Assembly (NCBI GenBank): GCA_965222225.1
Contig: CBDCTK010000002.1
Coordinates: 544,001-608,000, forward strand
DNA length: 64,000 nt
Origin: Candidatus Poribacteria bacterium
GTDB taxonomy: Bacteria; Poribacteria; WGA-4E; JAJDTR01
Direction: 5' to 3'
Both the position numbers and the translations under genes were made by a program. The notes beneath the pieces were generated by a model. The model saw nothing but the letters and a program-made list of their open reading frames with translations, had not been told where the DNA came from and made no database searches. Positions 13,911 through 44,420 of this stretch are shown one piece after another. Positions within the stretch are counted from its first letter, which is position 1; each line of letters begins with the position of its first letter.

Positions 13911-14191
13911 CGACGTGGCACTTGGCAAGGCATAAACCTAAACGTGCTTTCAATTCGTCACATTCAGGGGTGATGCGTAGTTTTCACCTTTCTTCTCGCA
14001 TAGAATTTCCTTGCTACTTGACTTCCGACTAATGTATGATATTTGCATGGTCTAATGTAAACACTTTCTACTAGTCACCGAAAAGGGTGTAGTGAGTTCC
14101 CGATACTCACCCACAGGCTTGCCTAGCGAATGATTTTGGTGTGCCATCAAGGGGTGTTTTGCTTGTCTGAAAACCTGTTGAGGAGATACGG

Positions 14192-14503: not shown

Positions 14504-14912
14504 TGGAGAGCGCATTTCTCCACTAAGTTTCAGACTAAAGTATCTGAAATCGGACTTAGTAATTTTTTCGATTGCTTTGGGTGTGTATATCTTCATATTA
14601 TGGAGGGAAAAATCTCATACGGGGATAGAACGTATAATATGGATCGTTGATCGTGTTGGTGCGGCTGTTCCTGTTGCCATTGTATTGACGCTATTATTTG
14701 AATTAGGAGGACTGGGCATCGTGTTGTTAACCAATTGGTACAAAGAATCTTACAAAGCCAAGCGCGAAAAAGAACTTGAAGAGGCTAAAGAGCAAGGGCG
14801 TCGTGAAGGACGTGCTGAGGCTGCAGCCGAGTTGGAAGCTGCACAACAGGAGTGGTATGATGAATCTGCCGCCGATACCGGAAGCGAGCCCAGTTCGGAC
14901 GAAAGAGAGTGA
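14496..14912 (+). CDS. Membrane protein with 2 TM helices and a charged C-terminal coil
   Basis: Two hydrophobic segments followed by EEAKEQGRREGRAE. Confidence 0.65.
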   Translation: MSNGERISPLSFRLKYLKSDLVIFSIALGVYIFILWREKSHTGIERIIWIVDRVGAAVPVAIVLTLLFELGGLGIVLLTNWYKESYKAKREKELEEAKEQGRREGRAEAAAELEAAQQEWYDESAADTGSEPSSDERE

Positions 14913-14939
14913 TAGCTCCGCCATAATGCAGTGCAGTTG

Positions 14940-15572
14940 CTAATTTCGTTCCTCAAGTGCTTCCTTCAATGCTTGGATTACTTCCTCTCTCCATTTTTCG
15001 ATAAAGTGAAATGTAAACTTACTCAAGTAAGGATTTTCGGCACTAAATACACCCGTTTCCAACAACATCGCCTTATAAATTTCTTGATGCTTTTCGGATA
15101 GCTTGCCTATGGCAGATTCAAGGATTGATTTTAACTCATTGTGGGTTGCAACGTCGGCAGGGTTCGGCAAGGATTCATCTTTCAGAATGTCTGCATAATC
15201 CATCACACCCTCTTCGGTCTTTATCAATTCATTCAGCGAATCCGCCTCCAACTGCCAAGTGCGCTTATGTCTGCCTAGTCGCCTCAAATGAAAAAGAGAA
15301 AAGTTTCGCATTGAAACGCTGGTGAATGCGTGTAGCTTACCCAAATCTGGGTTCCAAGATGCTATCAATTCTCTAAAAAAATGCTCTGCTGCAAGTTGTC
15401 GCATGTCTTCAATGTCCAGCCCCTCAACCCATTTGTTGTAACTTCCAAAATACTGTTTCACTGCTGCATATATGATTGCTCGGTGTCGTTTCCAAAGGAT
15501 TTCCCCCGCCTCATTATCACCATGTTCGATATACAACGAAATTAGCTCGGCGTCTGTCTTATTGTCTATCAA
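14940..15572 (-). CDS. Sigma-70 family RNA polymerase sigma factor (SigH/ECF-like, divergent region 4)
   Basis: TDAELI...GDNEAGEILWKRH, IEDMRQ, SWNPDLGKLHAF (region 2); LESAIGKLSEKHQEI (start of region 4). Confidence 0.75.
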   Translation of the reverse strand: MIDNKTDAELISLYIEHGDNEAGEILWKRHRAIIYAAVKQYFGSYNKWVEGLDIEDMRQLAAEHFFRELIASWNPDLGKLHAFTSVSMRNFSLFHLRRLGRHKRTWQLEADSLNELIKTEEGVMDYADILKDESLPNPADVATHNELKSILESAIGKLSEKHQEIYKAMLLETGVFSAENPYLSKFTFHFIEKWREEVIQALKEALEERN

Positions 15573-15724
15573 CTTCCATCACCACCTCTCCGAGATAGAC
15601 GTTAAATTTTAGCTTTTCCTGTGGCGGTAGTGTACCCTTGAAAAGGGTGTATTTCAAGATGGGGAATTGATGTAAGGCGAGGGGGTTGGTTCGGATGATG
15701 TTCGGTGGGAAAAATTAACGCACC

Positions 15725-15830
15725 ATTGAGGGTTTTAAGGGGTTTTATTTGGTTTTTAAGTGGGTGTCTTTACCCTATTCCTCAATTAAAACCCCGTCTG
15801 GTGCGCCTGGCGTGCGTTTTGGTGCGTTCT
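15725..15830 (+). repeat. Phased ~100-bp repeat, copy 3 (divergent)
   Basis: ttttaaggggttttatttggtttttaagtgggtgtctttaccc...aaaaccccgtctggtgcgcctgg; same centre and periodic arms. Confidence 0.5.
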
Positions 15831-15841
15831 GTGAGTATCAA

Positions 15842-16048
15842 TCAAACCGATTGTGTCTGATTCAAGTTGCGTGGCTTGTAAAGGTTTTGATTCGTTGAAA
15901 ACATCACGGGTATACACTTGCGGTTCGGGTCAAGTAATCGCTTAAAGCATTGCGTGAAAATTCCCTCGCCTGGCTTCAATCCTGTATGGACGAGGTGTTT
16001 TCTTTGATTCTTGAGATTGTGACGCCATTCATCCAAGTTGATTTTCAT
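15842..16048 (-). CDS. Hypothetical protein (68 aa)
   Basis: GGAG RBS upstream of the ATG; lies in the phage-like minus-strand cluster. Confidence 0.5.
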   Translation of the reverse strand: MKINLDEWRHNLKNQRKHLVHTGLKPGEGIFTQCFKRLLDPNRKCIPVMFSTNQNLYKPRNLNQTQSV

Positions 16049-16175
16049 AATGGTTATACTCCAAAAAGTAAAGAAACGAGTTCACGGAAATAGTAACTTG
16101 AAGAGTAGCTGAAAATCAGCCCGATTTCCAAGATGGCTATGTGTAGATTATTCATGGTTTATGATAGAGATTCCT

Positions 16176-16280
16176 AAAAGTGCATCCAGATCGATTTAAG
16201 GCTATCGTATAGGTTTTCGGGTATGTGTGTTATCCCTTGTTTAGCGCTCAAAACCCGCTGTGGATGTCTGGTGCAATTCC
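16176..16280 (+). repeat. Phased ~100-bp repeat, copy 4 (divergent)
   Basis: aaaagtgcatccagatcgatttaaggctatc...gtgtgttatccc...aaaacccgctgtggatgtctggtgc; resembles copies 2 and 3. Confidence 0.55.
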
Positions 16281-16475
16281 TCAGCCGTTCTGAGAGGTGT
16301 TGATTGACTCATTGATGCAGTCAACTATCATTTGTTTCAGTTCATGCGTTGGTTTGCTCGTATCAAGATTGAAATGCTTGGCAAGAGGTGCAACCCCGAA
16401 ACCTGATTTTAGCACAATGTGTTCGGGTGTCCATTTTCCTGAGATACAAGCGTTGATAATTTGTTCGGCGTTCAT
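16281..16475 (-). CDS. Hypothetical protein (64 aa)
   Basis: GAGGTG RBS; directly downstream of the TerS-like gene. Confidence 0.6.
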   Translation of the reverse strand: MNAEQIINACISGKWTPEHIVLKSGFGVAPLAKHFNLDTSKPTHELKQMIVDCINESINTSQNG

Positions 16476-16479
16476 GTAT

Positions 16480-17183
16480 TCAAATCACCTCATTTTGAGT
16501 TTCGGGTTCGTCCAATTTCTCATATTCTGATTTTCCAAGTGCTTCGCTACGTTCAGCTAAGGAATTGAAAAGTCTATCAAGTTCTGATTTTAACTCCTCA
16601 TGGATTATTAAATCATCATCCAGAGATGCCCAACGGGTTGAAAATTTGTCGGGGATTGTGTACAAGTTGATTTTTAGCGCATTTAGGGATTCATTCCATT
16701 CTCTCACTGCATCAGCCAACAGGATATATTCTTTTCTTTCCCTTGCAAACTGCAAGCGCAGGTGTTCGGATCTATGTCTTGCGGTCTCAGTTTCAACCCT
16801 ACGAGTCTCCGCAAGTGCTCTTTCCTTGTCGGCACGTGCGAGTTTGAAACGCCTGTCGATTGACGCCAATGATTCATCTTCACTGGACGCCTCTTTTGAT
16901 TTAGATTTAGATTGAGTGTTGGTTTTTTGGTGCTAGGAGTGCTTTTTGAGTTCGGCTGTTTTTTGAAATAATACCCACAGGTTTTGCCATTTCTTTTTGT
17001 TCGGCTGTTTCCGCATTGCTGCCAACCCAAATCCTGGAGTTCGACAGAAATCCGCCTGGTTGAGTAGGCAGAATCAAGCAAAATGTTGACGTGTTTTGTG
17101 ATTTCTTTCGGCGTGCTGAAATCACCTCTTTTGCTTGAGGTTACTAGATCTCTCTGAAGGATTTCGGATATATGCTCAGACAC
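16480..17183 (-). CDS. Terminase small subunit-like protein (winged-helix N-terminus plus lambda Nu1-like C-terminus), split in the A6 run at 16923-16928
   Basis: C-terminal part LRLQFARERKEYILLADAVREWNESLNALKINLYTIPDKF...IHEELKSELDRLFNSLA fits the Nu1-type pattern. One extra A fuses it to ORF 16704-17183 (~234 aa). Confidence 0.6.
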
Positions 17184-17242
17184 TTACAAAAACCTAAACA
17201 CAACCAAGAGCGATATGAGTAGGATTTCATAGGCATCTGCTT

Positions 17243-17935
17243 TTACTGGCTGATGACTGATAGCGCATTTGGCTTTACTAGGGCTGCATCTGCCATCACG
17301 GACATGGTCAAAACAACCTTGTTGTTGATTGATCTCGTGAATCCATCAATAATCAAATCGAAAACGGTGCTATCGTGCCATAATCCTACAACTACGAATG
17401 AGGGGTTCATAAGCCAACAGTCCGCATCCTCTAGGTTCTCAGTGATTAAGGCGTCATATCCTAGCACTTTGCCGTCGTCCATGAAAATAGGGGTAAAGAA
17501 ACTGGGTAATCGGATGCTCCGTAACCTTTTTCGAGTGTTTGAGTTCATTATGAAAAAGTACGGTAAGGGAGTTTTGCCCGTCCCTAGATTGCCTTCTGCG
17601 TCCCGCACCGATTCGTGAGCCGTTCCGCCCTGAAGGGCTGGAAGCGGAGTCCACGTAGCCGACGAAATTCCTGAAGTGTTCACAATACCCGATATTTCGT
17701 TTTGGGTGCTGTTACCTTTGAGAATTTGCCTGTCGAGTTCCTCAGTCAATGCCGAGCGCATGTCGTTCAGAATCAAATCGTTGATGTCACGGCTTGATTG
17801 CTCTATCAGTGTTCTTGAGATTTCTATGCTCACCCGAACGTGTTTTGGAATGAGTTTTATATTTGACCATGCAGGTTCGGTGCTAAAAACATTCGCATCC
17901 GTTGTTGTTTCTGTCACGGCTTTGGCAGTCAACAC
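17243..17935 (-). pseudogene. HK97-fold phage major capsid protein, C-terminal ~230 aa only
   Basis: ISRTLIEQSSRDINDLILNDMRSALTEELDRQILKGNSTQNEISGI, FIMNS..R..LR, VLGY, DAALVKPNAL. An in-frame stop lies just upstream, close to the element end. Confidence 0.8.
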
Positions 17936-18010
17936 TGCGGGAGTGTTTTTTTTATTTACGTTACTTAACCCCTATAAACCCGTACTATGACTTAGTTTCT
18001 CTCTGTGTAA

Positions 18011-23133: not shown

Positions 23134-24947
23134 TTAGGGGCAACTACGTGTTGTGACGGCAGATTCAATGTATCGTTTTCGCTCTTTATTTTGATGTTGT
23201 TGCAAGGGTAAAGCGAAGTGAAACACCGATCCTTCCCCAAGAACACTCTCTGCCCAGATTCGTCCATCGTGTTGCAGTAGAATATGTTTTGCAATCGCCA
23301 GTCCCAAACCTGTTCCACGTACCTCAGATGACCGCGCCTTATCCACTCTGTAAAATCGTTCAAATATCCGTGGTAACATGTCGGACGATATTCCAATGCC
23401 TGTGTCTCGAATATGTATTACAACCTCGGATTCACTTATACTGGCAGAGACAGTAATTTTGCCGCCCGGAGAAGTGTATTTAATTGCATTATCAATCAGG
23501 TTAGCGAAAGTTTGTTCTATGAGCCGCTTATCCACCAGTACCCGCGGCGAGTCGTCGGGAACTTCCCAATCAAATGTGAGTTTGGTGTCATCGAACACTG
23601 GGCCGAATAGATTCAAAAGGGGCGCCCGAAATACTCCAAGTTCACAAGATTCGAGGGTAAGGGTAGCCATTCCAGATTCCAGACGAGAGAGATCGAGGAG
23701 GTCTGTCACAAGTTGTGACAGCGCGGACGATTGTTGAAATATCTTCTCGACAAAACGCCGATTTGTACTCGAGTCGTCCAAAGCACCGGTCAGCAGTGTC
23801 TCGGCGAATCCTTGAATTGAGGTGAGCGGTGTCCGTATCTCGTGGGAGACATTGGTGACGAAATCCACTCTACGCGCTCTAAATTTCTCAATGTACTCAC
23901 GTCGTGAATCACAACCAGATATTCGTCTACAATAGGAACAGACGTGATTTCTGTTTCGCGTTCTGCAGTTCCCACTAACTTGAGTTCGGCAAACGCGGAT
24001 TCTTTTGTATCCCGACTTTTCGTCAGGAGTTCCTGTAATCTTGGATCTCGGATTGTTTCAATAAGGGGATGTCCGCGATAGTTGGCAGAAAGATTTAACA
24101 TCAAAACCGCGGCCGGGTTTGCATAGACAATAGCAAACTTCTCATCTATCAGTAGCACGCCTTCAACCATGTTCGCCAAGATTGCTTCCAATCGATCCCG
24201 TTCCTGAGAGACTTCATGGATTTGGTGTTTGACGCGATCCGCCATTTGACTGAAATGTTGGGTCAATCGCCCAAGCTCGTCCGAAGAGTTATTTGAAACT
24301 TGTATTGAAATCCGTCCATCGGCAATCAATTTTGCGGTCCGGAGAAACCTGCGAATTGGACTTGTGACTATCTTCGCGGCAACTAGACCGAGCATCAGAG
24401 TCGAAGCCAAGCCAATGACAATCGCGGGAATAAAGGCTGATTTAAAGCGCTCAACAAGCTCTTGCATGCGTAGCGAAGGTAATACAACTCGACATACGCC
24501 GATTAACCGATCCTCTCGCAACACGGGGATTGCAAAATAACGCATGTCGGTTCCTTGGATGTCACTGTATCGGGTTACATCGCCTCTACCTTTCGCCAAG
24601 GCGGCTTGTATCTCTAGGCGGTTTTGGAGGTTATCCATTTCCCTCAAAGCATCTGCATCGTATGCGGTATCGCCCCAAACGGTGCCATCCGGATCAACAA
24701 ATGTTAAGCGCACGAAATTTTCCGTGTCAAGTTTGTCAACGAGCGCATCTACTGTGCCATAGCTGAAATTCGTTGGAAGCGTGTTGCTCAGATGTTCACA
24801 AATCATGCGCGCTTTCATTTCTAGTTCGGGCACAGTCTGTTCAGCGAACATCTGCTTTAGTGAGTGATGTAAGTAGACGAATATCACAAGCAATGTTGCC
24901 AGCGAAATTAGGACGTAGCTCAAAATCAATCGGGCGCGCATTCTCAC
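23134..24947 (-). pseudogene. phoR: PhoR-like sensor histidine kinase (HAMP, PAS, HisKA, HATPase), frameshift at ~23870
   Basis: N-part has 2 TM, HAMP and PAS. C-part has DFVTNVSHEIRTPLT, NLIDNAIKY, FERFYRVDKARS, GTGLGLAI. The two frames differ by 1 nt. Confidence 0.85.
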
Positions 24948-25084: not shown

Positions 25085-25771
25085 ATGATGTCAAAGATTC
25101 TAATCGTTGAAGACGAGCCCGATATAGTCGAACTGTTGGCGTATAACCTACATCAGGCAGGTTTTGAGACGACAACGGCATTTAATGGGGAAGACGCCCT
25201 CCGACATGTGAACACTCGACCTCCAGACCTGATTCTCTTAGATCTGTTACTTCCCGGTGTGGATGGGCTAGAAATTTGCCGCATGTTGAAAAGGAATCCT
25301 ACGACTGAGGACATTCCTGTAATCATCTTGACTGCAAAAGGGGAGAAAACTGACAGGATTGTAGGCCTGGAATTAGGTGCAGATGATTATATTACCAAGC
25401 CTTTTAGCCCCAGAGAGGTAGTGCTGAGGATTCGTGCTGTCCAGCGTCGTATGGAAGAAGCTCGGACTAGCACAGCAGCGAAGCAGTTAAGGATTCACGA
25501 CTTGGTGATAAATTTGGACAATCATCAAGTGTTAAACAGGAGGCAGGAAGTGGATTTGACCGCCACGGAGTTCAAACTCCTTACGCTCTTGGTAGGGACG
25601 CCTAGACGCGTTTTTACACGCGATCTTCTGATGAATAAACTTTGGGGTGACAATTATTTCGCCGTGGATCGCACCGTGGACACTCACATCAGTCGTCTGA
25701 GGCGTAAATTACACCAACTAAGCGATGCTATAGAAACTGTACGCGGAGTCGGTTACCGCTTCAAAGAATAG
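25085..25771 (+). CDS. phoB: PhoB-like OmpR-family response regulator (copy 1)
   Basis: Receiver domain (ED, D, GADDYITKPF) and winged helix (RTVDTHISRLRRKL, VRGVGYRF); divergent from phoR. Confidence 0.85.
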   Translation: MMSKILIVEDEPDIVELLAYNLHQAGFETTTAFNGEDALRHVNTRPPDLILLDLLLPGVDGLEICRMLKRNPTTEDIPVIILTAKGEKTDRIVGLELGADDYITKPFSPREVVLRIRAVQRRMEEARTSTAAKQLRIHDLVINLDNHQVLNRRQEVDLTATEFKLLTLLVGTPRRVFTRDLLMNKLWGDNYFAVDRTVDTHISRLRRKLHQLSDAIETVRGVGYRFKE

Positions 25772-26638: not shown

Positions 26639-27923
26639 ATGGAAACCTCACGAGACCGGGACGATATTCTCATCTCCACGGTAATCAGACTCATTAAACG
26701 CAGAGCGATCTCCAACTTGAAAAAAGTCGTCAGTAAAACACATTCTGCGGATATTGCACACTGGTTTCCTTATCTTCGTCCCAACGAAAAGTCCATCTTG
26801 TTTAATCTCCTCATCGAGCAGGGACAAATGGGTGAGGTGATGAGTGAACTGAATGGTGAGGACAGGAATTTCTTTATTCAGGAGTCTGATGCTGGCGTTT
26901 TGGCGGACATTTTTCATAACATGCCAGCCGATGATTTGGGAGATATTCTGGCAGATTTACCCGAAGAGAAAACTCAACAATTTCTCAAACTCATAAAGGG
27001 CAAGGCCTCGGAAGACGTGGAGCAACTGTTGCAGGTTGAGAAAAAAACGGCGGGCTATATAATGACTCCCAACTTTCTCGCTTTGACAGAAGAAACGACA
27101 GCAGCGGCAGCGACGGATCGGATTCGAGAACTAGCCGATATTGAGATGGTTTTCTACGTTTATGTCATTGATGACGAGAATCAACTCAAAGGTGTCATAT
27201 CCCTTAGACAGCTTGTGGCTACCAAACCTGACACGCCATTGAAAGATTTGATGACTACCCGGGTTGTTTTCGGTTCATCCAAGCACGCCGCAAGAGGAGG
27301 TCGCGCATGTTGTTGCTCGTTACAACCTTCTCGCAGTTCCAGTTATTGATGACAGCGTAAAGTTAATTGGAATTGTAACGATTGATGATGTGATTGACGT
27401 TATTCGTGAGGAAAACACAGAGGATATGTTAAAAATGGCGGGTACAGGTGATGTTAATATCGCCTCAAAGTCTATCTTCAAGAATACACGCGCACGCTTG
27501 CCATGGTTGTTAGCGAGTTTTGTCGGTGGATTGATCGCTGTTTACGTCATCGACAATCATCGTTTGTGGGCTTGCGACAGGGGAGATTGACCTCAAGGAG
27601 ACGTGGAAAGTTCTGTGGAGAGAGATTGCAACCGGTGCTTCACTCGGGTGTGTTTACGGAATTTTGCTTGGCACCTTTGCTAAATTTCGGTTTTCGAAAG
27701 TAGAGATTGGCGGACTACAATTGGCTTGGGAATTCCCTGTTGTTGTTGCGTTAGCAATTTGTGTCAATATGTTAATTGCTGCCACGATCGGTACACTTAT
27801 CCCAATGTTTTTAAACGAATTCAGGTTGATCCGGCTATTGCGACTGGTCCATTTGTTACTACCGCAATTGACGTATTTGGCATTCTGACTTACTTTACAA
27901 TTGCACAGTTACTGCTCTTTTGA
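26639..27923 (+). pseudogene. mgtE: Magnesium transporter MgtE with two frameshifts and an internal deletion
   Basis: MgtE_N, CBS pair, RARLPWL and DPAIATGPFVTTAID are spread over several frames; the GGN segment is missing at ~27555. Confidence 0.88.
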
Positions 27924-27981: not shown

Positions 27982-29529
27982 ATGAACATGAGCTTACCAG
28001 ACGGACGCGATGGACGGACAATCATCAGCGACCTAGCGAACTACTATTTGCTAAGACAGGAACAGCCTACGGCCAAGAACGTCGGGATATACGATACCTT
28101 TGATTGGCGATTGTTTGAAAAATCTCTTGTGTTGTATAGTTCCGAGGGTGAACTGATTTTGTACAGGTTGTCCGATTATAAGATTGTCCAGCACACCAAA
28201 GTGAGCTCACTTCCTAATTTTGTGTGGGATTTTCCGGATGGTGATTTGAAAACATTGCTTGCGCCCATTCTTGAAGTGCGCAGACTGCTGAAACTTACCA
28301 CAATACATTCTCAATCCACTATCTACCGCATTTTGAATAAAGAGCAGAAAACTGTGGTTAGACTGAACTATGAAGAAATCCGTCGAACTGCTCAAGCACA
28401 AAGATCGACGTTATGCGTCCATCTTCACGTTGAATCGGTTAGGGGCTATCCGAGATATTATCGGGCAACGGTAGAACGGCTGGGGAAAATGGGGTTTATG
28501 CAAATCAAGCCAGAGACAATGTACTTCGAGGTTTTGAAAGAGAGCAATAAAACTCCCGGCGAATATTCTTCCAAATTGAAGCTACAGCTCGAGCCTGACA
28601 TGCGTTCAGATGAAGCCGCAAAGTTTATCTTGCGTTCTCTATTTAAATCCATGAAAGTCAATGAAAATCATATCGGTGAAGATCCTGACACAGAATTCTT
28701 GCACGATTTTCGGGTCGCCATTCGACGCACTCGCGTCGCGTTAAATCAAATCAAAGGGGTTTTCCCGGTAGACACCATCAAGAAATTTCAGAGAGATTTT
28801 GCTATTCTGGGTAAACTTTCGAATGAACTGCGGGATTTGGACGTTTATCTCCTCAAAGAGGATACCTACAAGAAAATGCTGCCCGAAAGCTTGCGCGATG
28901 AAATCAATCCCTTGTTCGTGTTCTTAAAGAACAAGAGATCGAAAGTATTAGAGGATGTCAAGAATGGTTTGTCCTCCCGCGAGTCTGCCAAAGTTCTTCG
29001 GACGTGGGAGAACTTCCTGGATGAACCCTCGGAAGGTTCGCTGACCGCACCGAATGCAACAGTTCCAGTCTTTGAGCTAGCCCGCAACAGAATTCATAAG
29101 AGGTACACCGAGATTCTAGAAACGGGCGCCCAAATTCTTGAGACAGCTAACGATGAGCGGTTACATGCCTTGAGGATTGAATGTAAGAAACTTCGGTATT
29201 TAATGGAGTTCTTTTCCAGTCTATTTCCTAGCAAAAAAATCTCGCTCTTGATTAAAGAACTTAAGAGTTTGCAAGATAATTTAGGTAACCTCAACGATTT
29301 GAGTATTCAACGGGCGTATCTTCGGAACACGGTCGATGAGTTACCGATTACCGACCATCAAGCTAAAAAGACAACATTGGCAATTGGAAGTTTGATTGGA
29401 AACCTAGAAGAACAGACTCAAGCCGTTAAAGGGTCGTTTTCTAAGAAATTCACTAGATTCGCGTCGCCTACACATAGAAGGTTATACCATGAGTTGTTCG
29501 TTGCAACAAAGAGTAAGGCGAGTGCATGA
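27982..29529 (+). CDS. CHAD-domain (polyphosphate-binding) protein with a CYTH-like N-terminus
   Basis: YDTFDWRL, EFLHDFRVAIRRTR, LRDLDV, LHALRIECKKLRY, LQDNLGNLND. Confidence 0.9.
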   Translation: MNMSLPDGRDGRTIISDLANYYLLRQEQPTAKNVGIYDTFDWRLFEKSLVLYSSEGELILYRLSDYKIVQHTKVSSLPNFVWDFPDGDLKTLLAPILEVRRLLKLTTIHSQSTIYRILNKEQKTVVRLNYEEIRRTAQAQRSTLCVHLHVESVRGYPRYYRATVERLGKMGFMQIKPETMYFEVLKESNKTPGEYSSKLKLQLEPDMRSDEAAKFILRSLFKSMKVNENHIGEDPDTEFLHDFRVAIRRTRVALNQIKGVFPVDTIKKFQRDFAILGKLSNELRDLDVYLLKEDTYKKMLPESLRDEINPLFVFLKNKRSKVLEDVKNGLSSRESAKVLRTWENFLDEPSEGSLTAPNATVPVFELARNRIHKRYTEILETGAQILETANDERLHALRIECKKLRYLMEFFSSLFPSKKISLLIKELKSLQDNLGNLNDLSIQRAYLRNTVDELPITDHQAKKTTLAIGSLIGNLEEQTQAVKGSFSKKFTRFASPTHRRLYHELFVATKSKASA

Positions 29530-30272
29530 AGATTTTGGCTATCTACAGTAATAAAGGGGGAGTCGGAAAGACGACAACAGCCGTCAATCTGTCTTTCTTA
29601 GCGGCAGAATCAGGGCTAAAAACCCTCGTCTGCGATCTTGACCCACAAAGTTCGGCGAGCTATTACTTTCGGGTCAAGCCCAAGTTGAGGGCAAACGCGA
29701 AGGGATTTCGTAAGGGAGGAAAAAACATTGAAAAAAGCATAAAAGGCACGGATTATAAAAACCTAGATATACTACCAGCGGATTTTACACATAGAAATCT
29801 TGCCTCAACTTTTAATAAATTAAAACGATCGAAACGAAGATTAAATCGAATTTTGGATCCACTCCGCGCCGAATACAACTTGATTGTGCTGGATTGCCCA
29901 CCAGCAATCAACCTTTTGGCGGAGAACATCTTCAATGTTGCCGATTACCTTCTTGTGCCCGTGATTCCGACAACACTGTCTGTTCGGACGCATGTGCAAT
30001 TGCTATCGTTTCTAAAAAAGAAGAAATACGACACAGACAAAATTTACGCTTTTTTTTCGCTGGTTGACAAGCGCAAGAAAATGCACAAGGAAATCATAGC
30101 GATTATTTCGCGAGAATTCAAAGGCGTTTTACACAATTCAATACCTTCGCTATCAAACATCGAAAGAATGGGGATTGAAAGAGAACCGGTCCCGGCTTTC
30201 GCGCCAACTTCACAGGCGGCAAAATCTTACCGAGAATTGTGGCAGGAAGTAAAAGCAACCCTGTTGGATTAG
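29526..30272 (+). CDS. ParA/MinD-family ATPase, translationally coupled to the CHAD gene
   Basis: Deviant Walker A KGGVGKTT, DLDPQ, LDCPP; ATGA overlap with the CHAD stop. Confidence 0.9.
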   Translation: MKILAIYSNKGGVGKTTTAVNLSFLAAESGLKTLVCDLDPQSSASYYFRVKPKLRANAKGFRKGGKNIEKSIKGTDYKNLDILPADFTHRNLASTFNKLKRSKRRLNRILDPLRAEYNLIVLDCPPAINLLAENIFNVADYLLVPVIPTTLSVRTHVQLLSFLKKKKYDTDKIYAFFSLVDKRKKMHKEIIAIISREFKGVLHNSIPSLSNIERMGIEREPVPAFAPTSQAAKSYRELWQEVKATLLD

Positions 30273-32495: not shown

Positions 32496-33744
32496 GGGAC
32501 TTAGTAGTTAACTGCTTTTTGGTCGATTTGCTTGCTTTTCTCTTCTTAATGTACAATAACTTTAGACAGTGTTCGGAATCTTGATTCACACTAAAATACA
32601 TCTCTATAAGAGAGAAATGGAGGCATATCATGTTGACCAAGCGTTTGTACATGCTCGCGGGAGCATTGCGGGTTATCTGCGGGATTTTAATTTCCAACAC
32701 TATGGGATTTTCAGCACACCATGATGTTGTCGTTGACAGAATATACCGATAGCCAAACAATTCATGTGGCTCAGGTGAAGCATTCATCAAAAAATCTTAT
32801 GAAAATCTCATCATCTTTTCTGCGATTATATTTCCAGCAAGACTCCATGATATACAGTGGCAGCCACTTCTTGCTGTAGTGATGATGCGTTCCGTAGAAT
32901 GACCTCTTGACACAAGCCCAAAACGACTCGATGGTGTTGGTGTGAGTTACGCCGTCCTCAGAAACATATCTCTCTTGGTGATGGATAACATGTCTTTCGA
33001 TATCTTCGTCCAGACTATTGTAAGAGCGAAATTCATCAGTCATAAGAATAGACTCATCGGGTGAGACATTGCTAAGGATGAATTCTCTGATATTTTCACC
33101 AGATAGAACCTTCATGAATTTAGCAACCACCCGACCGCCTCTCTCGACTACGCCGATGACGGGAGATTTATTTGTGCCTCTACCTCTCTTAGATTTTGCT
33201 CTGGGTTTGCCGCCGACATAGGTTTCGTCCGCTTCAACTATCCCTTTCAGCAATTCATCACTATCACTCATTTTCTCACGGAGGCGCATTGCCATATACC
33301 AAGCGGACTTTTGATTCATGTCCAAGTCACGAGCAAGCTGACAACTCGATATGCTTTTCTTGGCATTGGAAAGAATTGAGATAGCCAAAAACCATTTCTG
33401 GAGAGGTATCTTGGTACCATGGAAGATGGTTCCTGCTGTAGCCGAAAAGCTAGATTCACAATCGTAGCAATTCCAACCAGTAGTAATGTCGTTTTTGTTC
33501 TTGCGTCCAACTTTTTCACTGCCACAGTGGATACAGCAAACACCGTCCTTCCAACGTTTTTCCTCTATAAATCTGAGACAAGATTCTTGATTTGGAAACT
33601 CTTTCATAAGATTCAAAATGTCCATAGCAAACTCCTACGAGAAGAATAGTCACTATGGACATCTACGTGTGACGAAAAGATTTACGACAGGGTACCAAGT
33701 TTTATGTTTGTCGTCAGTCTAAAAGCTACAAGCTACTAATTCCG
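32496..33744 (-). mobile_element. IS1595-family insertion sequence, copy 1 (1249 bp)
   Basis: Imperfect IRs gggacttagtagtt and cggaattagtagct; perfect 8-bp target duplication TTAAAATA at 32488-32495 and 33745-33752. Confidence 0.92.
32771..33625 (-). CDS. IS1595-family transposase
   Basis: CxxC...CxxC zinc ribbon, GTIFHGT, VEADETYVGG, TDE, HTNTIESFW. Confidence 0.95.
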   Translation of the reverse strand: MDILNLMKEFPNQESCLRFIEEKRWKDGVCCIHCGSEKVGRKNKNDITTGWNCYDCESSFSATAGTIFHGTKIPLQKWFLAISILSNAKKSISSCQLARDLDMNQKSAWYMAMRLREKMSDSDELLKGIVEADETYVGGKPRAKSKRGRGTNKSPVIGVVERGGRVVAKFMKVLSGENIREFILSNVSPDESILMTDEFRSYNSLDEDIERHVIHHQERYVSEDGVTHTNTIESFWACVKRSFYGTHHHYSKKWLPLYIMESCWKYNRRKDDEIFIRFFDECFT

Positions 33745-35602: not shown

Positions 35603-36286
35603 ATGTTCTCCAGGATTCTTATCGTAGAAGATGATCGTAACATTGTAGAGTTGTTGACGTATAACTTGGAACAAGCGGGTTTTGACGTACACGCAGTCTT
35701 TGATGGTGCCGATGCCCTTCAACGTGCGGCAGCAGATGTGCCCGACCTCATCATCTTGGATTTATTGCTTCCAGAGATAGGTGGGCTTGAGGTTTGTCGT
35801 TTGCTCAAGCGCGATCAACGAACAGCAGGGATTCCGGTGATCATGTTAACGGCAAAAGGCGAGGAAGTAGATCGCATTGTCGGGCTAGAGTTGGGGGCTG
35901 ACGATTACATCACGAAACCGATTAGCCCACGAGAGGTTGTGTTGCGGGTGCGTGCAGTGTTGCGACGTATCGCCTCCCGAACCAATGAATCTTCAAATCA
36001 GATTGAAGTGCACGGTTTAACAATTAATCTAGATAAACATTTGGTGTGCAGTGCGGAGGGTGAAATAGATCTTACAGCTACCGAATTCAAAATGCTGACA
36101 CTGTTTGCGCAGGCGCCTGGCCGTGTCTTTACGAGAAGTGTGCTAATGGATGTGATCTGGGGGCAAGAATATTATGGAGTTGACCGGACCGTGGATACAC
36201 ATGTCAGTCGCTTGCGGAGAAAGTTAGGACACTTTGGAGAGCATATCGAAACAGTTCACGGAGTGGGATACAGATTTATGGGGTGA
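35603..36286 (+). CDS. phoB: PhoB-like response regulator (copy 2)
   Basis: Close paralog of 25085-25771; convergent with phoU. Confidence 0.8.
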   Translation: MFSRILIVEDDRNIVELLTYNLEQAGFDVHAVFDGADALQRAAADVPDLIILDLLLPEIGGLEVCRLLKRDQRTAGIPVIMLTAKGEEVDRIVGLELGADDYITKPISPREVVLRVRAVLRRIASRTNESSNQIEVHGLTINLDKHLVCSAEGEIDLTATEFKMLTLFAQAPGRVFTRSVLMDVIWGQEYYGVDRTVDTHVSRLRRKLGHFGEHIETVHGVGYRFMG

Positions 36287-36509: not shown

Positions 36510-37160
36510 TTACGTGTGCCGGAGGACGTCGCCTTTCACCAAGTAATAAACTTCCTCGCTGATGTTAGCTGCCAAGTCACCGATTCGTTCCAGATGGCGA
36601 AAGAGCAACAAAGTACTAATCCCCGGTCGTAGAATTGTGGAATCGTCTGAAAGGCGAAGCAGGAGTTCTTCAACTGTTTGATTATAGATTTTATCTACCT
36701 GATAGTCCCGTTCTCGTACTGCTTCTGCCAAGTCCGCATCCCGATTCACGAAGGCATCAAGTGCATCTTTTGCCATTTCCTGAACGATGCCCGCAATCCG
36801 AGGTAAGTCGATAAAGGGTTTGACGGGCGGATGTTCAATTAACTCAAGGCTACGTTGAGCAATATTGACCGCTTTGTCTGCCATTCGCTCGACATCATGG
36901 TTAATGGTAAGCACCATGCTCAACAAACGTAGATCCGATGCCGTAGGCTGATGACGAGCAATGAATCGAATACAAGATTCTTCAATCTCATTCTCAAGTG
37001 CGTCAACCTGTCCATCGCTCTGAATCACAACCGATGCCAACTCGCCATCTCGGTTTAAAACGGAATTTACGGCATCTTGCAGCATGCTTTCTGCCATTCC
37101 ACCCATTCTGAGTAATTCCTGTTGAATTTCTTTCAGTTCTACCTCGAAATGACGTCGCAT
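36510..37160 (-). CDS. phoU: Phosphate signalling protein PhoU
   Basis: QPTASDLR, ERMADKAVNIA, LERIGD.A.NI.E. Confidence 0.95.
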   Translation of the reverse strand: MRRHFEVELKEIQQELLRMGGMAESMLQDAVNSVLNRDGELASVVIQSDGQVDALENEIEESCIRFIARHQPTASDLRLLSMVLTINHDVERMADKAVNIAQRSLELIEHPPVKPFIDLPRIAGIVQEMAKDALDAFVNRDADLAEAVRERDYQVDKIYNQTVEELLLRLSDDSTILRPGISTLLLFRHLERIGDLAANISEEVYYLVKGDVLRHT

Positions 37161-37264: not shown

Positions 37265-38044
37265 TTAACCAAACTTCCCAGATACATAGGCTTCGGTACG
37301 ATGATCGCCAGGATTTGTGAAAATCTTATCGGTTAATCCGAACTCAATTAATTCCCCAAGGTAGAGAAACGCGGTATAGTATGAAACTCGCGCGGCTTGT
37401 TGCATGTTGTGTGTTACGATTAGAACAGTGTAACTATCTTTTAACTCTAGAATTAATTCTTCAATCTTCGCAGTGGCGATTGGGTCGAGTGCTGAACATG
37501 GCTCGTCAAGTAGGAGGACTTCAGGCTCAATTGCCAATGTTCTCGCGATGCAGAGTCGCTGTTGCTGCCCGCCCGAAAGAGCATAAGCGCTATCTCTCAA
37601 CTTATCCTTGACTTCGTCCCACAGTGCGGCTTTCTGAAGACTGTCCTCGACAATCGAGTCAAGTTGGTCTCGGTTACGTATGCCTGATATCTTCGGACCA
37701 TATGCGATGTTATCGTATATTGATTTAGGGAACGGGTTCTGTTTCTGGAAGACCATGCCGAGCCGTAAGCGCACTTCCACCGGATCGATAGCGGTAGAAT
37801 AGAGATCTTGCCCTTCAAGAAGAATCTTTCCTGTTAACTTGAAAGTGGGGACAAAGTCGTTCATGCGGTTAAAACAGCGGATTAGTGTGCTCTTACCACA
37901 ACCGGAGGGGCCAATCAGAGCAGTCACTTTGTTCCGCTCAACGTCAAACGATATGTTTCTTAAAGCCTGCGCCTCACCGTACCAAGCGTTGAGATCATGA
38001 ACACTCAGAACCACGTCGAATTTACTGTTTGTCTGCTGCTTCAT
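37265..38044 (-). CDS. pstB: Phosphate ABC transporter ATP-binding protein
   Basis: [41 protein letters not shown] end. Confidence 0.97.
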
Positions 38045-38051
38045 ACTGACC

Positions 38052-38930
38052 TCATTGATACTGTTTTTGGTAACGGTTTCGCAAGAAGATTGCGAGTGCG
38101 TTCAAAAGAAGCGTTACCACCAAGAGAACAACAATACCTGCGGCCGCATTAATGTGAAACCCCGCTTGCGGACGAGACACCCAATTAAAAATCTGAATCG
38201 GCAATGCTGTAAACGGAGAAAGCAGTCCATCAGGTACAAATGCGACGTACGTCAATGCACCAATTGCGATCAATGGGGCAGTTTCTCCGATGGCGCGAGA
38301 AACTGCCAGTATTATGCCCGTCAGAATCCCGGGAAACGCCAATGGCAACACATGGTCCTTTGTCGTTTGCCACTGTGTGGCGCCGAGTGCATAGGCTGCC
38401 TCCCGGATCGTGCCCGGAACCGCTCGGATTGCCTCCCGAGAAGCGATGATAACGATTGGGAGTACAAGTAGAGCTAATGTCAACGCGCCTGCTAAAAGGC
38501 TTCTATCCAAACGCATCCCACGAACGAACAGTTCCAATCCCAAAAGCCCGTAAATAATCGACGGAACGCCCGCTAGATTCGCAACGTTTACCTCAATGAT
38601 GCGACTCAACCGGCTCGACTGATTTGTATATTCTTCAAGGTACACTGCAGCCGCAACTCCTATCGGTACGGCGACCACTGCAGTCAAGGTAATCAAGTAT
38701 ACACTACCTATGAGAGCAGAGAAGATGCCGGCTTCCGCCGGCTTCCGAGAGGGAAAACTCGTTAGGAATTCCCAGTCAATTCGCGGCAGGCCATCAACTA
38801 GGGCATCAGCAATCAACGCTCCCAGTGTAGCAAGCGCGAGTACAATGCCGACCACCGCAATTATCCGGAAAAGACCGTCGCCCAATTTTTGTCGCTTTAG
38901 CAGTTTTCGGGTGTGTACTGTCGAAATCAT
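38052..38930 (-). CDS. pstA: Phosphate ABC transporter permease PstA
   Basis: [24 protein letters not shown]. Confidence 0.95.
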
Positions 38931-39832
38931 TCGTACTTCTCCCGGAATCGTTGACGCAAAAAGTCGCCAACGAGGTTGAGTGCAAAAGTTGATAAAAATA
39001 AGACCATCCCAACCGCAAAAATCGTCTGGAATTCTAGCGTTCCGGTCGGTGTATCTCCCAAGCTGATTTGAACAATGTAAGTCGTCATTGTTTCAATCGG
39101 CACTAAGGGGTTGAAGGTTAAGTTTGGCATTTGCCCCGCCGCGATTGCCACGAGCATAGTTTCGCCAATTGCACGCGAAATAGCGATGACAAAGGACGCA
39201 GTAATCCCGGAGAACGCCGCCGGTACAACGACCTGCCATGCCGTCTGAAGACGTGAAGAGCCCAGTGCATACGCCGCTTCACGTAAACCGCGTGGGACGG
39301 CATACATCGCGTCTTCGCTTAATGACGAAACTAACGGTATAATCATGATTCCCATCACGATTCCCGGAGAGAGTGCGTTGAATCCACCAAGGCTGGGAAT
39401 TAGTTTTTGTAGCAACGGTGTCACTAATAGAAGAGCAAAATAGCCGTAGACAATGCTCGGAACGCCAGCTAGAATTTCTAGTATCGGTTTTAGTATTTGA
39501 CGGAGGCGCGCAGGAGCATATTCGCTTAAGAAGATTGCAGTCAGTATTCCCAAGGGACCGGCGATCGAAATAGCAATCGCAGACGTAAGCGCGGTCCCCG
39601 CTACAAGCGGAAGTATGCCAAAGTGCTTCTTCACGAAAAGAGGAGTCCACTCGGTGTCGGTGAAAAACTCAATGACAGAGACCTCCTTAAAAAAGCCGAT
39701 TGTCTCAAACAAAAGCACGCCAATAATGCCTACGGTAGTAAAGATTGAGAGCATTCCGCAGGCCAACAAGGCGGTTTCGATGAACTTTTCTCCTGTTCTG
39801 GATTTTCTTGGATGACTCATTATAGAAATCAT
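38927..39832 (-). CDS. pstC: Phosphate ABC transporter permease PstC
   Basis: [21 protein letters not shown]. Confidence 0.95.
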
Positions 39833-39886
39833 TGGAAGTAGAACATGCGTGTCCAGAGTTAGCAGATTGATCGTGTCACATCGAAT

Positions 39887-40894
39887 TTATTCCGAACCTT
39901 GGCCAAGGAGTTCCTCAACCGAAACCCCCATCTTGGCACCCTTTCCACCAAACACAGAACCCGTGACACGTTTTTGGAAGCGTTCCAAGGCGAGTCGATA
40001 AGCCTCATCAGGTAGTGGAATGTAGCCTACCTCTTTCGTCAAGGCATTTGCGTGCTTGAGATAAAACTCGACAAATCTTTCAACCTCGGGCCGTTCCGCC
40101 GACTTCTTACTCACATAGATAAATATTGGGCGGGAAAGGGGCTGGTAGGTGGAGTTCTTAACCGTTTCGAGCGATGGAAAAATCGGTCCGTCACCGTTTT
40201 CCACCTTGCCATCGTCGATGGGTACTAACTTCAATGAATCCTTATTTTCCTCATAGTATGCTAATCCAAAGAATCCTAGCCCATGCATATTATTGGAGAC
40301 CGCCTGAACGAGAACGTTGTCATCTTCGCTCGCCACAAAATCTCCACGACTCGCACCTTCTGCCCCGTTAATTGCTTTCGTGAAGTAGTCATAGGTACCA
40401 GAATCAACTCCGGGGCCTGCTAACGCAAATTTCTTGTCTGGCCAATCAGGTCGAATTTGATTCCAATGAGTAATCTTGCCTTGTGCCTCCGGTTCCCACA
40501 ACGTTCCAAGTTCGTCAACGGTAAAAAAATCTACCCAGTCGTTTTGAGGATGCACGACGACGGCTAACCCATCGTACGCCACAGGCAACTCTATGTACTC
40601 AATCCCGTTCTTCTCGCACAATTCGACTTCCGTTGGCTTGATAGGTCGCGAGGCGTCAGACATGTCGGTTTCGCCGCGGCCAAATTTTTTGAATCCACCA
40701 CCGGTGCCGGAGATTCCAACAGTAACTCTAAATTTGCGGTTCTCCTTCTGGTATTCTTCGGCAACCGCTTCTGTAATTGGATACACCGTACTTGAGCCAT
40801 CCACTTTAATTAACTTGGCGCCATATGCTGAACTAACTACAAATGCGCAGATGATAAGCACCACTAGCCTAACTTGGCTGAATCGGCAAAGCAT
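39887..40894 (-). CDS. pstS: Phosphate-binding protein PstS
   Basis: [36 protein letters not shown]. Confidence 0.95.
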
Positions 40895-41050: not shown

Positions 41051-42022
41051 ACCAATGGTGCTAGTTTGAAATTTGGAGGTTAATAAGCATAACATTCCCT
41101 TTTGGCTTTGCTTTAATGCGAAAGGTATCAGGGCATGAGACGATTTCCTCGATTCTACCGTTAATTTGAGTATCGGTAGCTATCAAATAACGGGAGGAAA
41201 TCTAGACTCATGACCATAGTAGATTTTATCACAGAACTGTTTTGTTGTGTTGATGATAAACTCTCACAGCACGGTAAAAACCATAAGCATAGCCAAGCCA
41301 AACTTTATCCGTCTGAAGTGGTTACCACTGCCATGCTCTTTGCGCTCAAGGGTGTGGGTAATCGAGCCTCCTATCGCTGGATAGCGAACAATTTCAAATC
41401 CTTATTTCCGAAGTTACCCGAGCGTACCCGATTGTTCCGCTTATTCGACGGGCATCAACATCTCATTGACGTTTTTATGGCGAATCCTTCGCTTATCGGT
41501 GGAATTGACACGTACGGTATTGAATTGATTCACCCGCGCCGAGAAGGGCGCTCTAAACGTCAAATCGGACGCAAAGGCATTTCCAACCAACGATGGATTG
41601 TAGGTGGAAAACTTTGCTTGCTACACAATCATCTCGGACTGATTGTCAACTGGGACTGCGACACTGCCAATGTACATGATGGGAGTGCCTTCCAACATCT
41701 CGTTGATGGGGTCAGTGACCAGATGGTTGTTTTTGCCGATGTAAATTTCGCCAAAGCGGATTGGTTCCCTTCCAACTTGCGTCTGTGCCGACGTGGCGAG
41801 TGGAATTCTCGGATGCTGGTAGAAACGATTTTGTCCATGTTGACGCTAGTGTGCCATTTTAAGAAAGTCATGCACCGTCGTTGGAGTTACTTCAAAACGC
41901 GAGTCGGCTTTACAATGGCTTTGTTCAATCTCTTGGTACAGTGGAATGGATTGTCGATTGACGACGATGGCTTTGTGCCTCTGTCAATAGCTCAATTCAG
42001 TCTCTAAACTAGCACCAAAGGT
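41051..42022 (+). mobile_element. IS982-family insertion sequence (972 bp)
   Basis: IRs accaatggtgctagttt and aaactagcaccaaaggt; TATTA duplicated on both flanks. Confidence 0.85.
41210..42007 (+). CDS. IS982-family DDE transposase
   Basis: FITELFCCVDD, LYPSEV, FPKLPERTRL, TANVHD, RMLVET. Confidence 0.85.
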   Translation: MTIVDFITELFCCVDDKLSQHGKNHKHSQAKLYPSEVVTTAMLFALKGVGNRASYRWIANNFKSLFPKLPERTRLFRLFDGHQHLIDVFMANPSLIGGIDTYGIELIHPRREGRSKRQIGRKGISNQRWIVGGKLCLLHNHLGLIVNWDCDTANVHDGSAFQHLVDGVSDQMVVFADVNFAKADWFPSNLRLCRRGEWNSRMLVETILSMLTLVCHFKKVMHRRWSYFKTRVGFTMALFNLLVQWNGLSIDDDGFVPLSIAQFSL

Positions 42023-42869: not shown

Positions 42870-43841
42870 TCAATTCATCCGGAGCTGAAATACGATAGGA
42901 AGTTCTAAACGGAGCATCGAACCGCTCTGATCTTCGGGAAATGGTGGAAACGGAATGGCGTTTCGTACTGCGGCTAAAGCAGCATTGTCGAGTGATTTGG
43001 AGCCGGAAGACGCCACAACCTTGGCGTGTTGAATCGTACCGTCGCGAAGAAGTGTAAAACGCACCTTCGTGGTTGCACCGTCCTCCGCATTCCCCACGGA
43101 TGGTGGGTGGCGCTGTGCTCGTTTTATCTGTTCTCTGACCTGTTTTAAGAACTCTACGAAAGATTGCCTAGTATTGCCTAGATCTGCCGAAAAAGTATCG
43201 ATCGTGTCTGGGCTAAACGCTATTTCCGAGAACGATTGCGAATCGTTAAATTTGCTAATTATAGGCGCGGTGTCAAACTTCGGCGGTTCAAATTTAGGAG
43301 TGACCGTAGCCACACTAGCCTTGCGTCTCTCAAATATTAAACCTCTGTCCAAGCCTACATGGCTGGGCCCCGCCGTAGTTGCCACCAAAAGATTTCCTGC
43401 CGGAAGAGTAACCCGTTCGTTTCCCATTGACAGCCGCACACTTGTAGCAATTGGCTGAACCCTCGGGGCAGCAAGAGGGCGCAATTTCGGGGCTTCGGAT
43501 TGACGTTGCTTTGGTTCGCGTTTGATGACTCGTTTGTCAGGAATCGCTTCCATCATATCCGCCACCATAGAGTCGTCTTGCACGGCAATTTCTCGCACAA
43601 CGTAAATCCCTGCTACGAATATTGCTACACCATGTAGCGCTAGTGATACCAGTGCGGCAACGCGTCGTTTTGATGCATTTTTTCCTTTTGCACCTGCGAG
43701 TGGCGGTGCATTCCGGATTTGTATAACCGCTTCCTTGTACTCTGTTGAATTTGCCGTGGATGATGGTTTCTTGCTTGCCACGTCAGAAATCGGTAAACCT
43801 GCAGCCTCCCGCTTCGCACGCAGCATCTTCTTATACTGCAT
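42870..43841 (-). CDS. Energy transducer TonB family protein
   Basis: SLALH TM anchor, Pro-rich linker, C-terminal VRF...DG...SSG..LD.AAL.AV....PFPPFP. Confidence 0.82.
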   Translation of the reverse strand: MQYKKMLRAKREAAGLPISDVASKKPSSTANSTEYKEAVIQIRNAPPLAGAKGKNASKRRVAALVSLALHGVAIFVAGIYVVREIAVQDDSMVADMMEAIPDKRVIKREPKQRQSEAPKLRPLAAPRVQPIATSVRLSMGNERVTLPAGNLLVATTAGPSHVGLDRGLIFERRKASVATVTPKFEPPKFDTAPIISKFNDSQSFSEIAFSPDTIDTFSADLGNTRQSFVEFLKQVREQIKRAQRHPPSVGNAEDGATTKVRFTLLRDGTIQHAKVVASSGSKSLDNAALAAVRNAIPFPPFPEDQSGSMLRLELPIVFQLRMN

Positions 43842-43887
43842 TCTTTGTCTGAATGCCTAATATTTCGATGCACCAGATGCCATGTTG

Positions 43888-44379: not shown

Positions 44380-44420
44380 AGCTATACCAACTTACGCGTA
44401 ATGATTGACGGGACACGTGA

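Follow-up and report, generated by a model that had tools for sequence, protein, structure and literature searches.

A CHAD-domain adaptor and a ParA-type ATPase form a conserved two-gene unit and a candidate system for placing polyphosphate granules

How polyphosphate (polyP) granules are placed in cells and inherited has been a standing question since at least 2013, when a ParA-like mechanism that binds polyP and nonspecific DNA was given by Henry and Crosson as one of three models (PMC3806658); in a 2026 study, the mechanism of polyP localization was described as undefined in Escherichia coli and Caulobacter (PMC13081873). The question is raised by a stretch of 64,000 nucleotides (nt) from a Candidatus Poribacteria bacterium (assembly GCA_965222225.1, contig CBDCTK010000002.1, positions 544,001 to 608,000 of the forward strand), referred to here as the window, in which a gene for a CHAD-domain protein directly precedes a gene for a ParA-type ATPase. 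What cargo does this ATPase serve? The upstream gene (27982..29529, plus strand) is an uninterrupted open reading frame (ORF) for a protein of 515 amino acids (aa), designated P0001, which consists of an N-terminal domain (residues 1 to 205, 27982..28596) and a CHAD domain (approximately residues 207 to 515, 28600..29526). The downstream parA gene (29526..30272, plus strand) is likewise uninterrupted and encodes the 248-aa ATPase P0002. The two genes share an ATGA at 29526..29529, which holds the stop codon of the upstream gene and the start codon of parA, an arrangement that suggests translational coupling. The scanned ORFs of the window yielded no ParB, ppk or ppx. A sequence-only reading of this DNA had described two intact, overlapping genes, a ParA rich in Lys and Arg, the lack of parB and a location between phoBR and phoU-pst, all of which were borne out, the last with qualifiers that are given below; it had also proposed that the CHAD protein is a granule adaptor and that the ParA protein spaces or segregates the granules on the nucleoid. 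Our analyses indicated that adaptor and ATPase form a two-gene unit conserved across many phyla. The CHAD protein is well supported as the cargo adaptor of a dedicated ParA, and the pair is a strong candidate for the machinery that places polyP granules in cells.

The linkage of the two genes was examined across genomes by using an alignment of 28 ParA cluster sequences (A1) to scan 185,579 species genomes. A total of 594 stretches matched and 569 were confirmed, and all of the locus counts reported here refer to the best 80 of these. This set consisted of 51 loci with a ParA that was 41 to 90% identical to P0002 (L001 to L051; the subfamily) and 29 loci with more distant ParAs (L052 to L080; 26 to 35% identity), which provided a built-in control. 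Adaptor genes were called by a phmmer search with P0001 over every ORF of at least 50 aa at the 80 loci. A homologue of P0001 adjoined the ParA gene at 47 of the 51 subfamily loci and at none of the 29 control loci, and on the basis of these counts the pairing is far beyond chance. The adaptor gene was directly upstream and on the same strand in 46 cases and directly downstream in 1 (L008, Entotheonella). The 46 upstream junctions all lay in a range from an overlap of 29 nt to a gap of 58 nt, with the 4-nt overlap of the window being present in 23 and a 1-nt overlap in 5. The conserved linkage, for which the sequence-only reading had proposed a survey, extended over about nine phyla, with linked loci in Poribacteria, Thermodesulfobacteriota, Chloroflexota, Tectimicrobiota, Calditrichota, KSB1, Lentisphaerota, Kiritimatiellota and alpha-, beta- and gamma-Pseudomonadota. 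The ParA family itself was very tight, as all 120 clusters among the matches listed, bearing names from different phyla, had 64 to 99% identity to P0002. In a ParA tree of 79 rows, from which the truncated rows L045 and L065 were left out, the subfamily formed a single clade with a support of 98 and a stem of 1.37 changes per column. The adaptor adjacency label required 4 changes on this tree, compared to a mean of 25 for shuffled labels. Distances between ParAs and between adaptors were correlated (r = 0.87; 0 of 2,000 permutations; 42 loci), a result that shows shared inheritance only.

Linkage in the reverse direction, from adaptor to ParA, was examined in a plasmid collection, in which tblastn searches detected 84 records with P0001 and 9 records with P0002 (E <= 1e-40). 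Both genes were side by side in only 6 of the 84 records, all from Paracoccus. The remaining 78, which included records with YgiF-like "inorganic triphosphatase," "CYTH and CHAD" and stand-alone CHAD genes, lacked a ParA of this kind, indicating that the ATPase belongs to one CHAD subfamily and not to CHAD proteins generally. On a plasmid of Paracoccus liaowanqingii with a CHAD-ParA-CYTH-NUDIX cluster, the ParA gene (L083, 5406-6172) appeared to be disrupted, matching in two pieces and being annotated as genes of 669 nt and 138 nt, and an IS256 transposase gene lay just downstream.

Fusion proteins were also detected. Among 28 long proteins that matched P0002 at E <= 1e-40, 5 contained a CHAD domain, in both domain orders, and 2 contained a CYTH domain. 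The CHAD domain preceded the ParA domain in P0124, P0141 and P0147 and in P0126, an 852-aa protein with 6 member sequences in which the N-terminal domain was also present, while ParA, a spacer and CHAD followed each other in the 771-aa protein P0125. Five other fusions (P0129 to P0131, P0133 and P0135) joined a ParA of approximately 43% identity to P0002 to a solute-binding SBP_bac_3 domain; these may represent a sister ParA group with another partner or cargo. On Marinobacter plasmid pMAQU02 (L084, 4001-6509), a ParA of 40% identity was followed by a BMP-family binding protein.

A structure of the ParA-adaptor complex was predicted with both chains supplied as our own alignments, and the score of 0.64 compared with 0.00 for the best of three controls. 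In a benchmark whose counts hold only roughly for alignments supplied in this way, 116 of 157 solved complexes scored at least 0.64, compared to 2 of 215 mismatched pairs. Contacts agreed by 100% among the three runs, and the partner had a predicted local distance difference test (pLDDT) value of 86. The predicted interface was composed of ParA residues 49 to 51, 72 to 76 and 81 and adaptor residues 116, 121 to 124 and 153 to 156. ParA is thus predicted to dock on the N-terminal domain of the adaptor and not on CHAD. Besides the start Met, six residues were invariant in the N-terminal domain (D38, L51, R100, K123, G155 and Y156), and three of these, K123, G155 and Y156, were within the interface. 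On the ParA side, R49, D76 and D81 were specific to the subfamily and were present in 47, 46 and 48, respectively, of the 48 linked rows, while position 49 was G in 25 of the 29 other ParAs. Three of the four subfamily members without an adaptor were altered at the interface, with Q49, M73 and E81 in L017, K49, E74 and E76 in L046, and K49, N76 and H81 in L050.

The CHAD half of the adaptor was readily recognized. The Pfam CHAD model (PF05235) matched residues 216 to 448 of P0001 (E value of 1.9e-49; 169.1 bits versus a cutoff of 25.6), none of the NCBIfam models matched P0001, and the full-length protein was modeled with a pLDDT of 90.4 and a predicted template modeling score of 0.85. A profile of the adaptor family (A2) matched the CHAD protein of Chlorobium tepidum, CtCHAD (UniProt Q8KE09; PDB 3E0S, 6QV7 and 6QVA), with an E value of approximately 1e-101 at positions 200 to 510, and the fold of the CHAD half, which consists of two four-helix bundles, resembled that of CtCHAD with template modeling (TM) scores of 0.92 to 0.94. 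CtCHAD was crystallized with polyP, which it binds across a central pore; binding was weakened by mutating H253, R256, R260, R296 or R418/Y419, and nucleic acids were not bound by CHAD domains (PMC6537752). The protein forms dimers and tetramers, and higher oligomers with polyP, and the crystallized part comprised residues 207 to 522 of a longer protein (PMC6537752). On the basis of the profile alignment and of this residue range, CtCHAD is probably the C-terminal half of a protein resembling P0001. With a deduced offset between the PDB numbering and that of the paper, the polyP contact residues aligned with H241, R244, R248, R284 and R405/Y406 of P0001, which were invariant in 31 of 31 sequences. 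The prediction that the CHAD domain of P0001 binds polyP is supported by these conserved contact residues, and localization of CHAD proteins to granules is cited in PMC9239181 and PMC13081873.

The N-terminal domain had been called "CYTH-like," a description that was suggested by the predicted fold and failed at the level of the sequence. Residues 1 to 205 had no Pfam match, CYTH included, and an hhalign comparison with the stand-alone CYTH proteins encoded nearby at other loci, which carry an EIERK motif, gave a probability of 0.1%. The first strand has a Y-x-L-P consensus in place of the ExExK signature, and membership in the CYTH family by sequence was therefore ruled out. The domain was predicted to adopt a beta fold, with a pLDDT of 90.7 when folded alone, and the best fold matches were nearly all triphosphate tunnel metalloenzymes (TTM/CYTH), namely thiamine triphosphatase, SaTTM, YgiF and AtTTM3. 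The matches were modest (E value of approximately 1e-5, TM scores of 0.45 to 0.6 and root mean square deviations of 5 to 9 A), and Mediator Med18/20 was close behind. In our reading of the predicted structure, the domain descends from a TTM enzyme and is no longer catalytic, and a ParA contact on this domain would explain the retention of a catalytically dead domain. Among 1.84 billion representatives, the profile of the domain detected 2,770 clusters at E <= 0.001, 2,182 at E <= 1e-10 and 392 at E <= 1e-30, and 106 of the best 150 clusters were 480 to 560 aa long.

These features suggest a mechanism in which the CHAD domain of the adaptor would bind the polyP of the granule and the TTM-like domain, which lacks the catalytic motif, would dock the ATPase. 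ParA would dimerize on ATP and attach to a polyanionic matrix, for which the nucleoid is the most probable candidate. Where many adaptors cover one granule, they would stimulate ATP hydrolysis and ParA release locally, and the granule would travel up the ParA gradient formed in this way. Granules would thereby be distributed at intervals over the nucleoid and divided among daughter cells, as carboxysomes are by McdAB. We infer ATP-dependent dimerization, DNA binding, stimulation of the ATPase and granule movement, and consider it somewhat probable that a nucleoid-bound ATP dimer and granule-bound adaptors space and segregate granules by such a gradient. For the earlier proposal of CHAD as the granule adaptor, the linkage, the complex and the conserved polyP residues argue in its favor, and the part that requires revision is the site of contact with ParA, which was predicted on the N-terminal domain instead of on CHAD.

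Several observations weigh against this reading. Four of the 51 subfamily loci (L017, L039, L046 and L050) had no adaptor gene. The best plasmid match to P0001, on Thiodictyon pTs417 (34% identity, N-terminal domain included, near pstS), had no adjoining ParA, and 3 of the 9 plasmid records with such a ParA lacked the adaptor; these were ParAs of Marinobacter, Pontibacter and Halomonas with 40 to 43% identity and no CHAD gene nearby. The fusions in which CHAD precedes ParA could be frameshift artefacts of overlapping genes, an explanation that is less likely for the ParA-first fusion P0125. The score of the complex is a model confidence obtained from our own alignments, and conserved residues may attract predicted contacts; for this reason the interface is support and not proof. 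Nucleoid DNA binding by ParA and the spacing and segregation of granules rest on inference, and the strong positive charge of ParA fits binding of polyP as well as binding of DNA. The column of P0002 residue N211 aligns with the position of PDB structure 8RAY that we take to be the equivalent of Arg189, presumably the DNA-binding arginine of Bacillus subtilis Soj; most subfamily members have D, E or Q in this column, an observation that counts against DNA binding if this unconfirmed mapping holds. Finally, polyP spacing in Synechococcus elongatus is reported to be independent of McdAB, with McdA being the sole ParA-family ATPase there (PMC13081873), and hence a granule ParA system cannot be universal.

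The charge of the ATPase bears on what ParA binds. P0002 has an isoelectric point (pI) of 9.9 and a net charge of +19, in agreement, by composition, with its description as rich in Lys and Arg. The subfamily was exceptionally basic as a whole, with a median pI of 9.7 and a net charge of +13 (n = 52) compared to 5.8 and -3 in other ParAs (n = 29), and some relatives had Lys-rich C-terminal tails. The sole member with an acidic ParA (L017; pI 5.1) was also one of those without an adaptor. Together with the nonbasic residues at the presumed Soj arginine position and the polyP enzymes encoded alongside the pair, these findings are consistent with polyP itself being the matrix. ATP dimers of ParA would then coat or patrol the granule surface, with the CHAD adaptor responsible for their recruitment and turnover. 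Instead of transporting granules along DNA, they would control the number, size or fusion of granules or determine whether PPK and TTM enzymes gain access. This alternative is possible but unlikely, since a charge-driven attachment to polyP would need no dedicated and conserved docking domain on the adaptor and positive charge suits DNA binding equally. To our knowledge, moreover, the matrix is DNA or membrane for every ParA/MinD ATPase that has been characterized. A specific form of this idea, in which an inorganic polymer takes the place of DNA or membrane as the surface for the basic ATP dimer and the CHAD adaptor is a turnover factor like MinE or ParB, is doubtful. If it were true, this would be the first ParA/MinD ATPase to work on an inorganic polymer, and a self-organizing pattern on or between granules would set their number and size and couple the phosphate store to the ATP level.

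The genes that surround the pair raise the alternative of a regulatory switch. Neighbors up to 6 kb from ParA were counted at the 51 subfamily loci by using phmmer (E <= 1e-5). A stand-alone CYTH gene was present at 21 loci, PPK1 at 9, PPK2 at 8, NUDIX and metallophosphoesterase genes at 5 each, and PPX at 3. One or more of PPK1, PPK2, PPX and CYTH was present at 30 of the 51 loci and at none of the 29 control loci, so that the association with polyP genes for which a check of ppk and ppx had been suggested was evident. The stand-alone CYTH gene, which appeared intact, was often directly 3' of parA; an EIERK start was present in 16 of 18 N termini, and its residues were invariant in a 12-sequence alignment. 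Such clusters and the ParA-CYTH fusions would suit an ATPase whose ATP/ADP state reports the energy charge and, through the adaptor, gates synthesis or breakdown of polyP by the neighboring PPK, PPX and CYTH enzymes, and other family members (FlhG, MipZ and BcsQ) act as regulators or assembly factors. The other 21 loci, the window among them, had no PPK1, PPK2, PPX or CYTH gene within 6 kb and nevertheless kept the pair, and the constant unit of adaptor plus ATPase has the layout of cargo-positioning pairs. We therefore regard the regulatory switch as improbable. A SixA-like histidine phosphatase gene also recurred, being present at 11 of the 51 loci (including L002, L003, L005 to L007, L026, L033, L038, L048 and L051), and in Entotheonella (L008, 6884-9067) a histidine phosphatase was joined to the N terminus of the adaptor.

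The sequence of the ATPase bears on whether an ATP cycle is involved. P0002 matched Pfam AAA_31 (E value of 3.1e-37; 128.7 bits versus a cutoff of 27) and CbiA/ParA/MinD (58.9 versus 25.4) and was below the cutoff of every NCBIfam model, including ParA_partition (91.5 versus 180) and minD_bact (52.2 versus 212.9). Features of MinD were lacking, as there was no extension past residue 248 that could form a C-terminal amphipathic membrane-targeting helix, amphipathicity being judged by eye, and there were no min genes, such as minC or minE, nearby. The deviant Walker A motif is NKGGVGKT and includes the signature lysine, and K10 and K15 were invariant in 28 of 28 sequences of A1. These two lysines and D37, D39 and D123, which we take to be the Walker A' and Walker B aspartates, did not vary in any of the 77 ParA rows examined, a set that included 48 rows linked to CHAD. 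Motifs of the subfamily were [FL]R[VI]KP at residues 48 to 52, I[KR][GA][ST]D[YF] at 72 to 77 and IERMGIxREP at 212 to 221. The invariant ATPase motifs argue for a working ATP cycle and hence against a static tether, in which ParA and adaptor would anchor granules to the nucleoid with no ATP-driven gradients. A parallel exists in PhaM, which anchors polyhydroxybutyrate granules to the nucleoid, and an adaptor with a basic ParA could bridge polyP and DNA. For several species, granules are reported to lie on the nucleoid (PMC13081873, PMC3806658). The static tether is nonetheless quite improbable. An ordinary DNA partition ParA that stands beside a CHAD gene by chance is very improbable, since database names of relatives ("chromosome partitioning protein") and best PDB matches to chromosomal ParA/Soj are outweighed by the lack of ParB among the scanned window ORFs, the score below the ParA_partition cutoff, the fusions, the reported failure of CHAD domains to bind nucleic acids (PMC6537752) and, above all, the linkage counts, which contradict this explanation. 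Overall, spacing and segregation of granules by an ATP-dependent ParA gradient on the nucleoid is the reading that we prefer.

The setting of the pair in the window is rich in phosphate genes. Upstream are phoR (23134..24947, minus strand), a first phoB gene (25085..25771, plus strand) and a decayed mgtE gene (26639..27922, plus strand), which is spread over several frames, with two separate ORFs matched by the MgtE_N/CBS and TIGR00400 models. This remnant is immediately 5' of the pair and ends 59 nt ahead of the adaptor start. Downstream are a second phoB gene (35603..36286, plus strand; Pfam and NCBIfam PhoB matches), phoU (36510..37160, minus strand) and pstB-pstA-pstC-pstS (37265..40894, minus strand), with phoU and the pst genes assigned by Pfam, the first phoB and phoR by Pfam and NCBIfam, and the two permeases named from gene order only. 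The placement between phoBR and phoU-pst thus stands, with the qualifiers that phoR is split, that mgtE is decayed and that five other genes (an aminotransferase gene, nfi, an IS1595 transposase gene, and genes for a VOC protein and a NadD-like protein) lie between the pair and phoU. Across the 51 subfamily loci, PhoU was found within 6 kb at 1 and PstS at none, and adjacency to Pho genes as a general feature of the pair was ruled out by these counts. The low PhoU count indicates that the phoBR/pst setting belongs to the lineage of the window, and the closest relatives carry the name Candidatus Poribacteria. A Pho setting recurred on a Paracoccus marcusii plasmid, in which pstA-pstB-phoU-phoB was followed by CHAD-ParA-CYTH-NUDIX-CYTH. 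When the DNA ahead of the pair was examined for a promoter or Pho box, a consensus scan detected 5 promoter-like sites versus 4.5 expected, a chance level from which no statement on Pho regulation of the pair follows, and alignment of the upstream regions of the window and of a related Poribacteria genome (L001) revealed conservation of the end of the mgtE remnant only.

Several other features of this region were apparent. The phoR gene of the window is broken into two ORFs that overlap, 23790-24947 (sensor, HAMP and PAS domains) and 23134-23868 (HisKA and HATPase domains), and is one 635-aa ORF in L001 (1-1905); the split reflects either a frameshift in a pseudogene or a fault of the assembly. 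The mgtE gene is also decayed in L001 (3718-4457), where it is more reduced and only the last ~120 nt align well. In L001, an insertion of ~190 nt (4249-4438) that is absent from the window separates the mgtE remnant from the adaptor gene; it has 17-nt inverted repeats at its ends with 94% complementarity and looks like a miniature transposable element. The phosphate gene region of the window is broken by an IS1595-family transposase gene (32771-33625, minus strand) and a second DDE transposase gene (41210-42007, plus strand). Beyond it, 42870-55015 contains a phosphorus-scavenging set with TonB, a TonB-dependent receptor (46403-48706), a PhoX alkaline phosphatase (49785-51023) and a phytase-like esterase (52998-54005), and two choice-of-anchor I pieces within this set (51762-52874 and 54344-55015) may be one broken gene. 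A segment of lower GC content (0.42 to 0.43) at 12000-18000 contains an ORF of a phage capsid family (17243-17935), together with several ORFs that matched no family, and may be a prophage remnant. A short protein of 387 aa with DnaA ATPase and DnaA C-terminal domains is encoded at 58640-59803 (plus strand).

The pair offers named genes and residues of a predicted interface that can be mutated, and the long-standing question of granule placement and inheritance thereby becomes directly testable, with cultured carriers available in Nitrosomonas europaea, Paracoccus (such as P. marcusii), Tritonibacter (such as T. scottomollicae), Acidithiobacillus, Desulfobacter latus and Pontiella. If the proposed function is correct, ParA/MinD ATPases would gain an inorganic granule as a cargo, a function would be assigned to the N-terminal domain found in a large CHAD subfamily (the 2,182 clusters detected at E <= 1e-10), and the CHAD proteins called "phosins," whose function is reported as unknown, would acquire a cellular role. 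The module is present in sponge symbionts and sulfate reducers, in which polyP storage is ecologically important.

The sequence-only reading knew of no description of such a system. This view was upheld in that full-text literature searches found no description of a ParA-CHAD system and a 2024 review of ParA/MinD proteins mentions neither polyphosphate nor CHAD, and it required amendment in that the adjacency of the two genes had been drawn before. A folD-ppk-parA-CHAD cluster of Acidithiobacillus appears in figures of two papers and is called highly conserved in the genus (PMC6416229, Fig. 3; PMC10892726, Fig. 1). In the available portions of these papers, ParA is a partition protein only, the CHAD protein is named as an adenylyl cyclase, and no interaction or positioning role is given (PMC6416229, PMC10892726).

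Comparison with characterized proteins places each half of the pair. Chromosomal ParA/Soj proteins (PDB 8RAY, 6IUB and 1WCV; E values of 8.5e-19 to 3.5e-14) are the closest solved relatives of P0002 and share its fold family and nucleotide motifs, whereas P0002 has no ParB, falls under the NCBIfam cutoffs and has motifs of its own at 49 to 51, 72 to 77 and 212 to 221. E. coli YgiF, a TTM-CHAD inorganic triphosphatase (PDB 5A60), has the same order of two domains as P0001 by fold (E value of 5e-9), but the TTM domain of YgiF is catalytic, while the TTM-like domain of P0001 has neither ExExK nor a CYTH match by sequence. CtCHAD belongs to the same CHAD subfamily as P0001, with conserved contact residues and an agreeing layout (207-522); it was studied as an isolated domain, and the N-terminal part and a ParA partner are outside the description in the available portion of the source (PMC6537752).

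The closest functional parallels are McdA-McdB, PpfA/TlpT and ParC/ParP, in each of which a ParA-type ATPase is likewise encoded beside a protein that binds a cargo other than DNA, with no ParB/parS. The proposed logic, in which a cargo-bound adaptor acts on a matrix-bound ATPase, is common to these systems and the pair described here. The differences lie in the parts. McdB is small and largely disordered, whereas the adaptor of the pair is a large, folded protein of two domains, TTM-like and CHAD. The ATPase of the pair is far more basic than other ParAs, and the cargo here would be a granule of an inorganic polymer.

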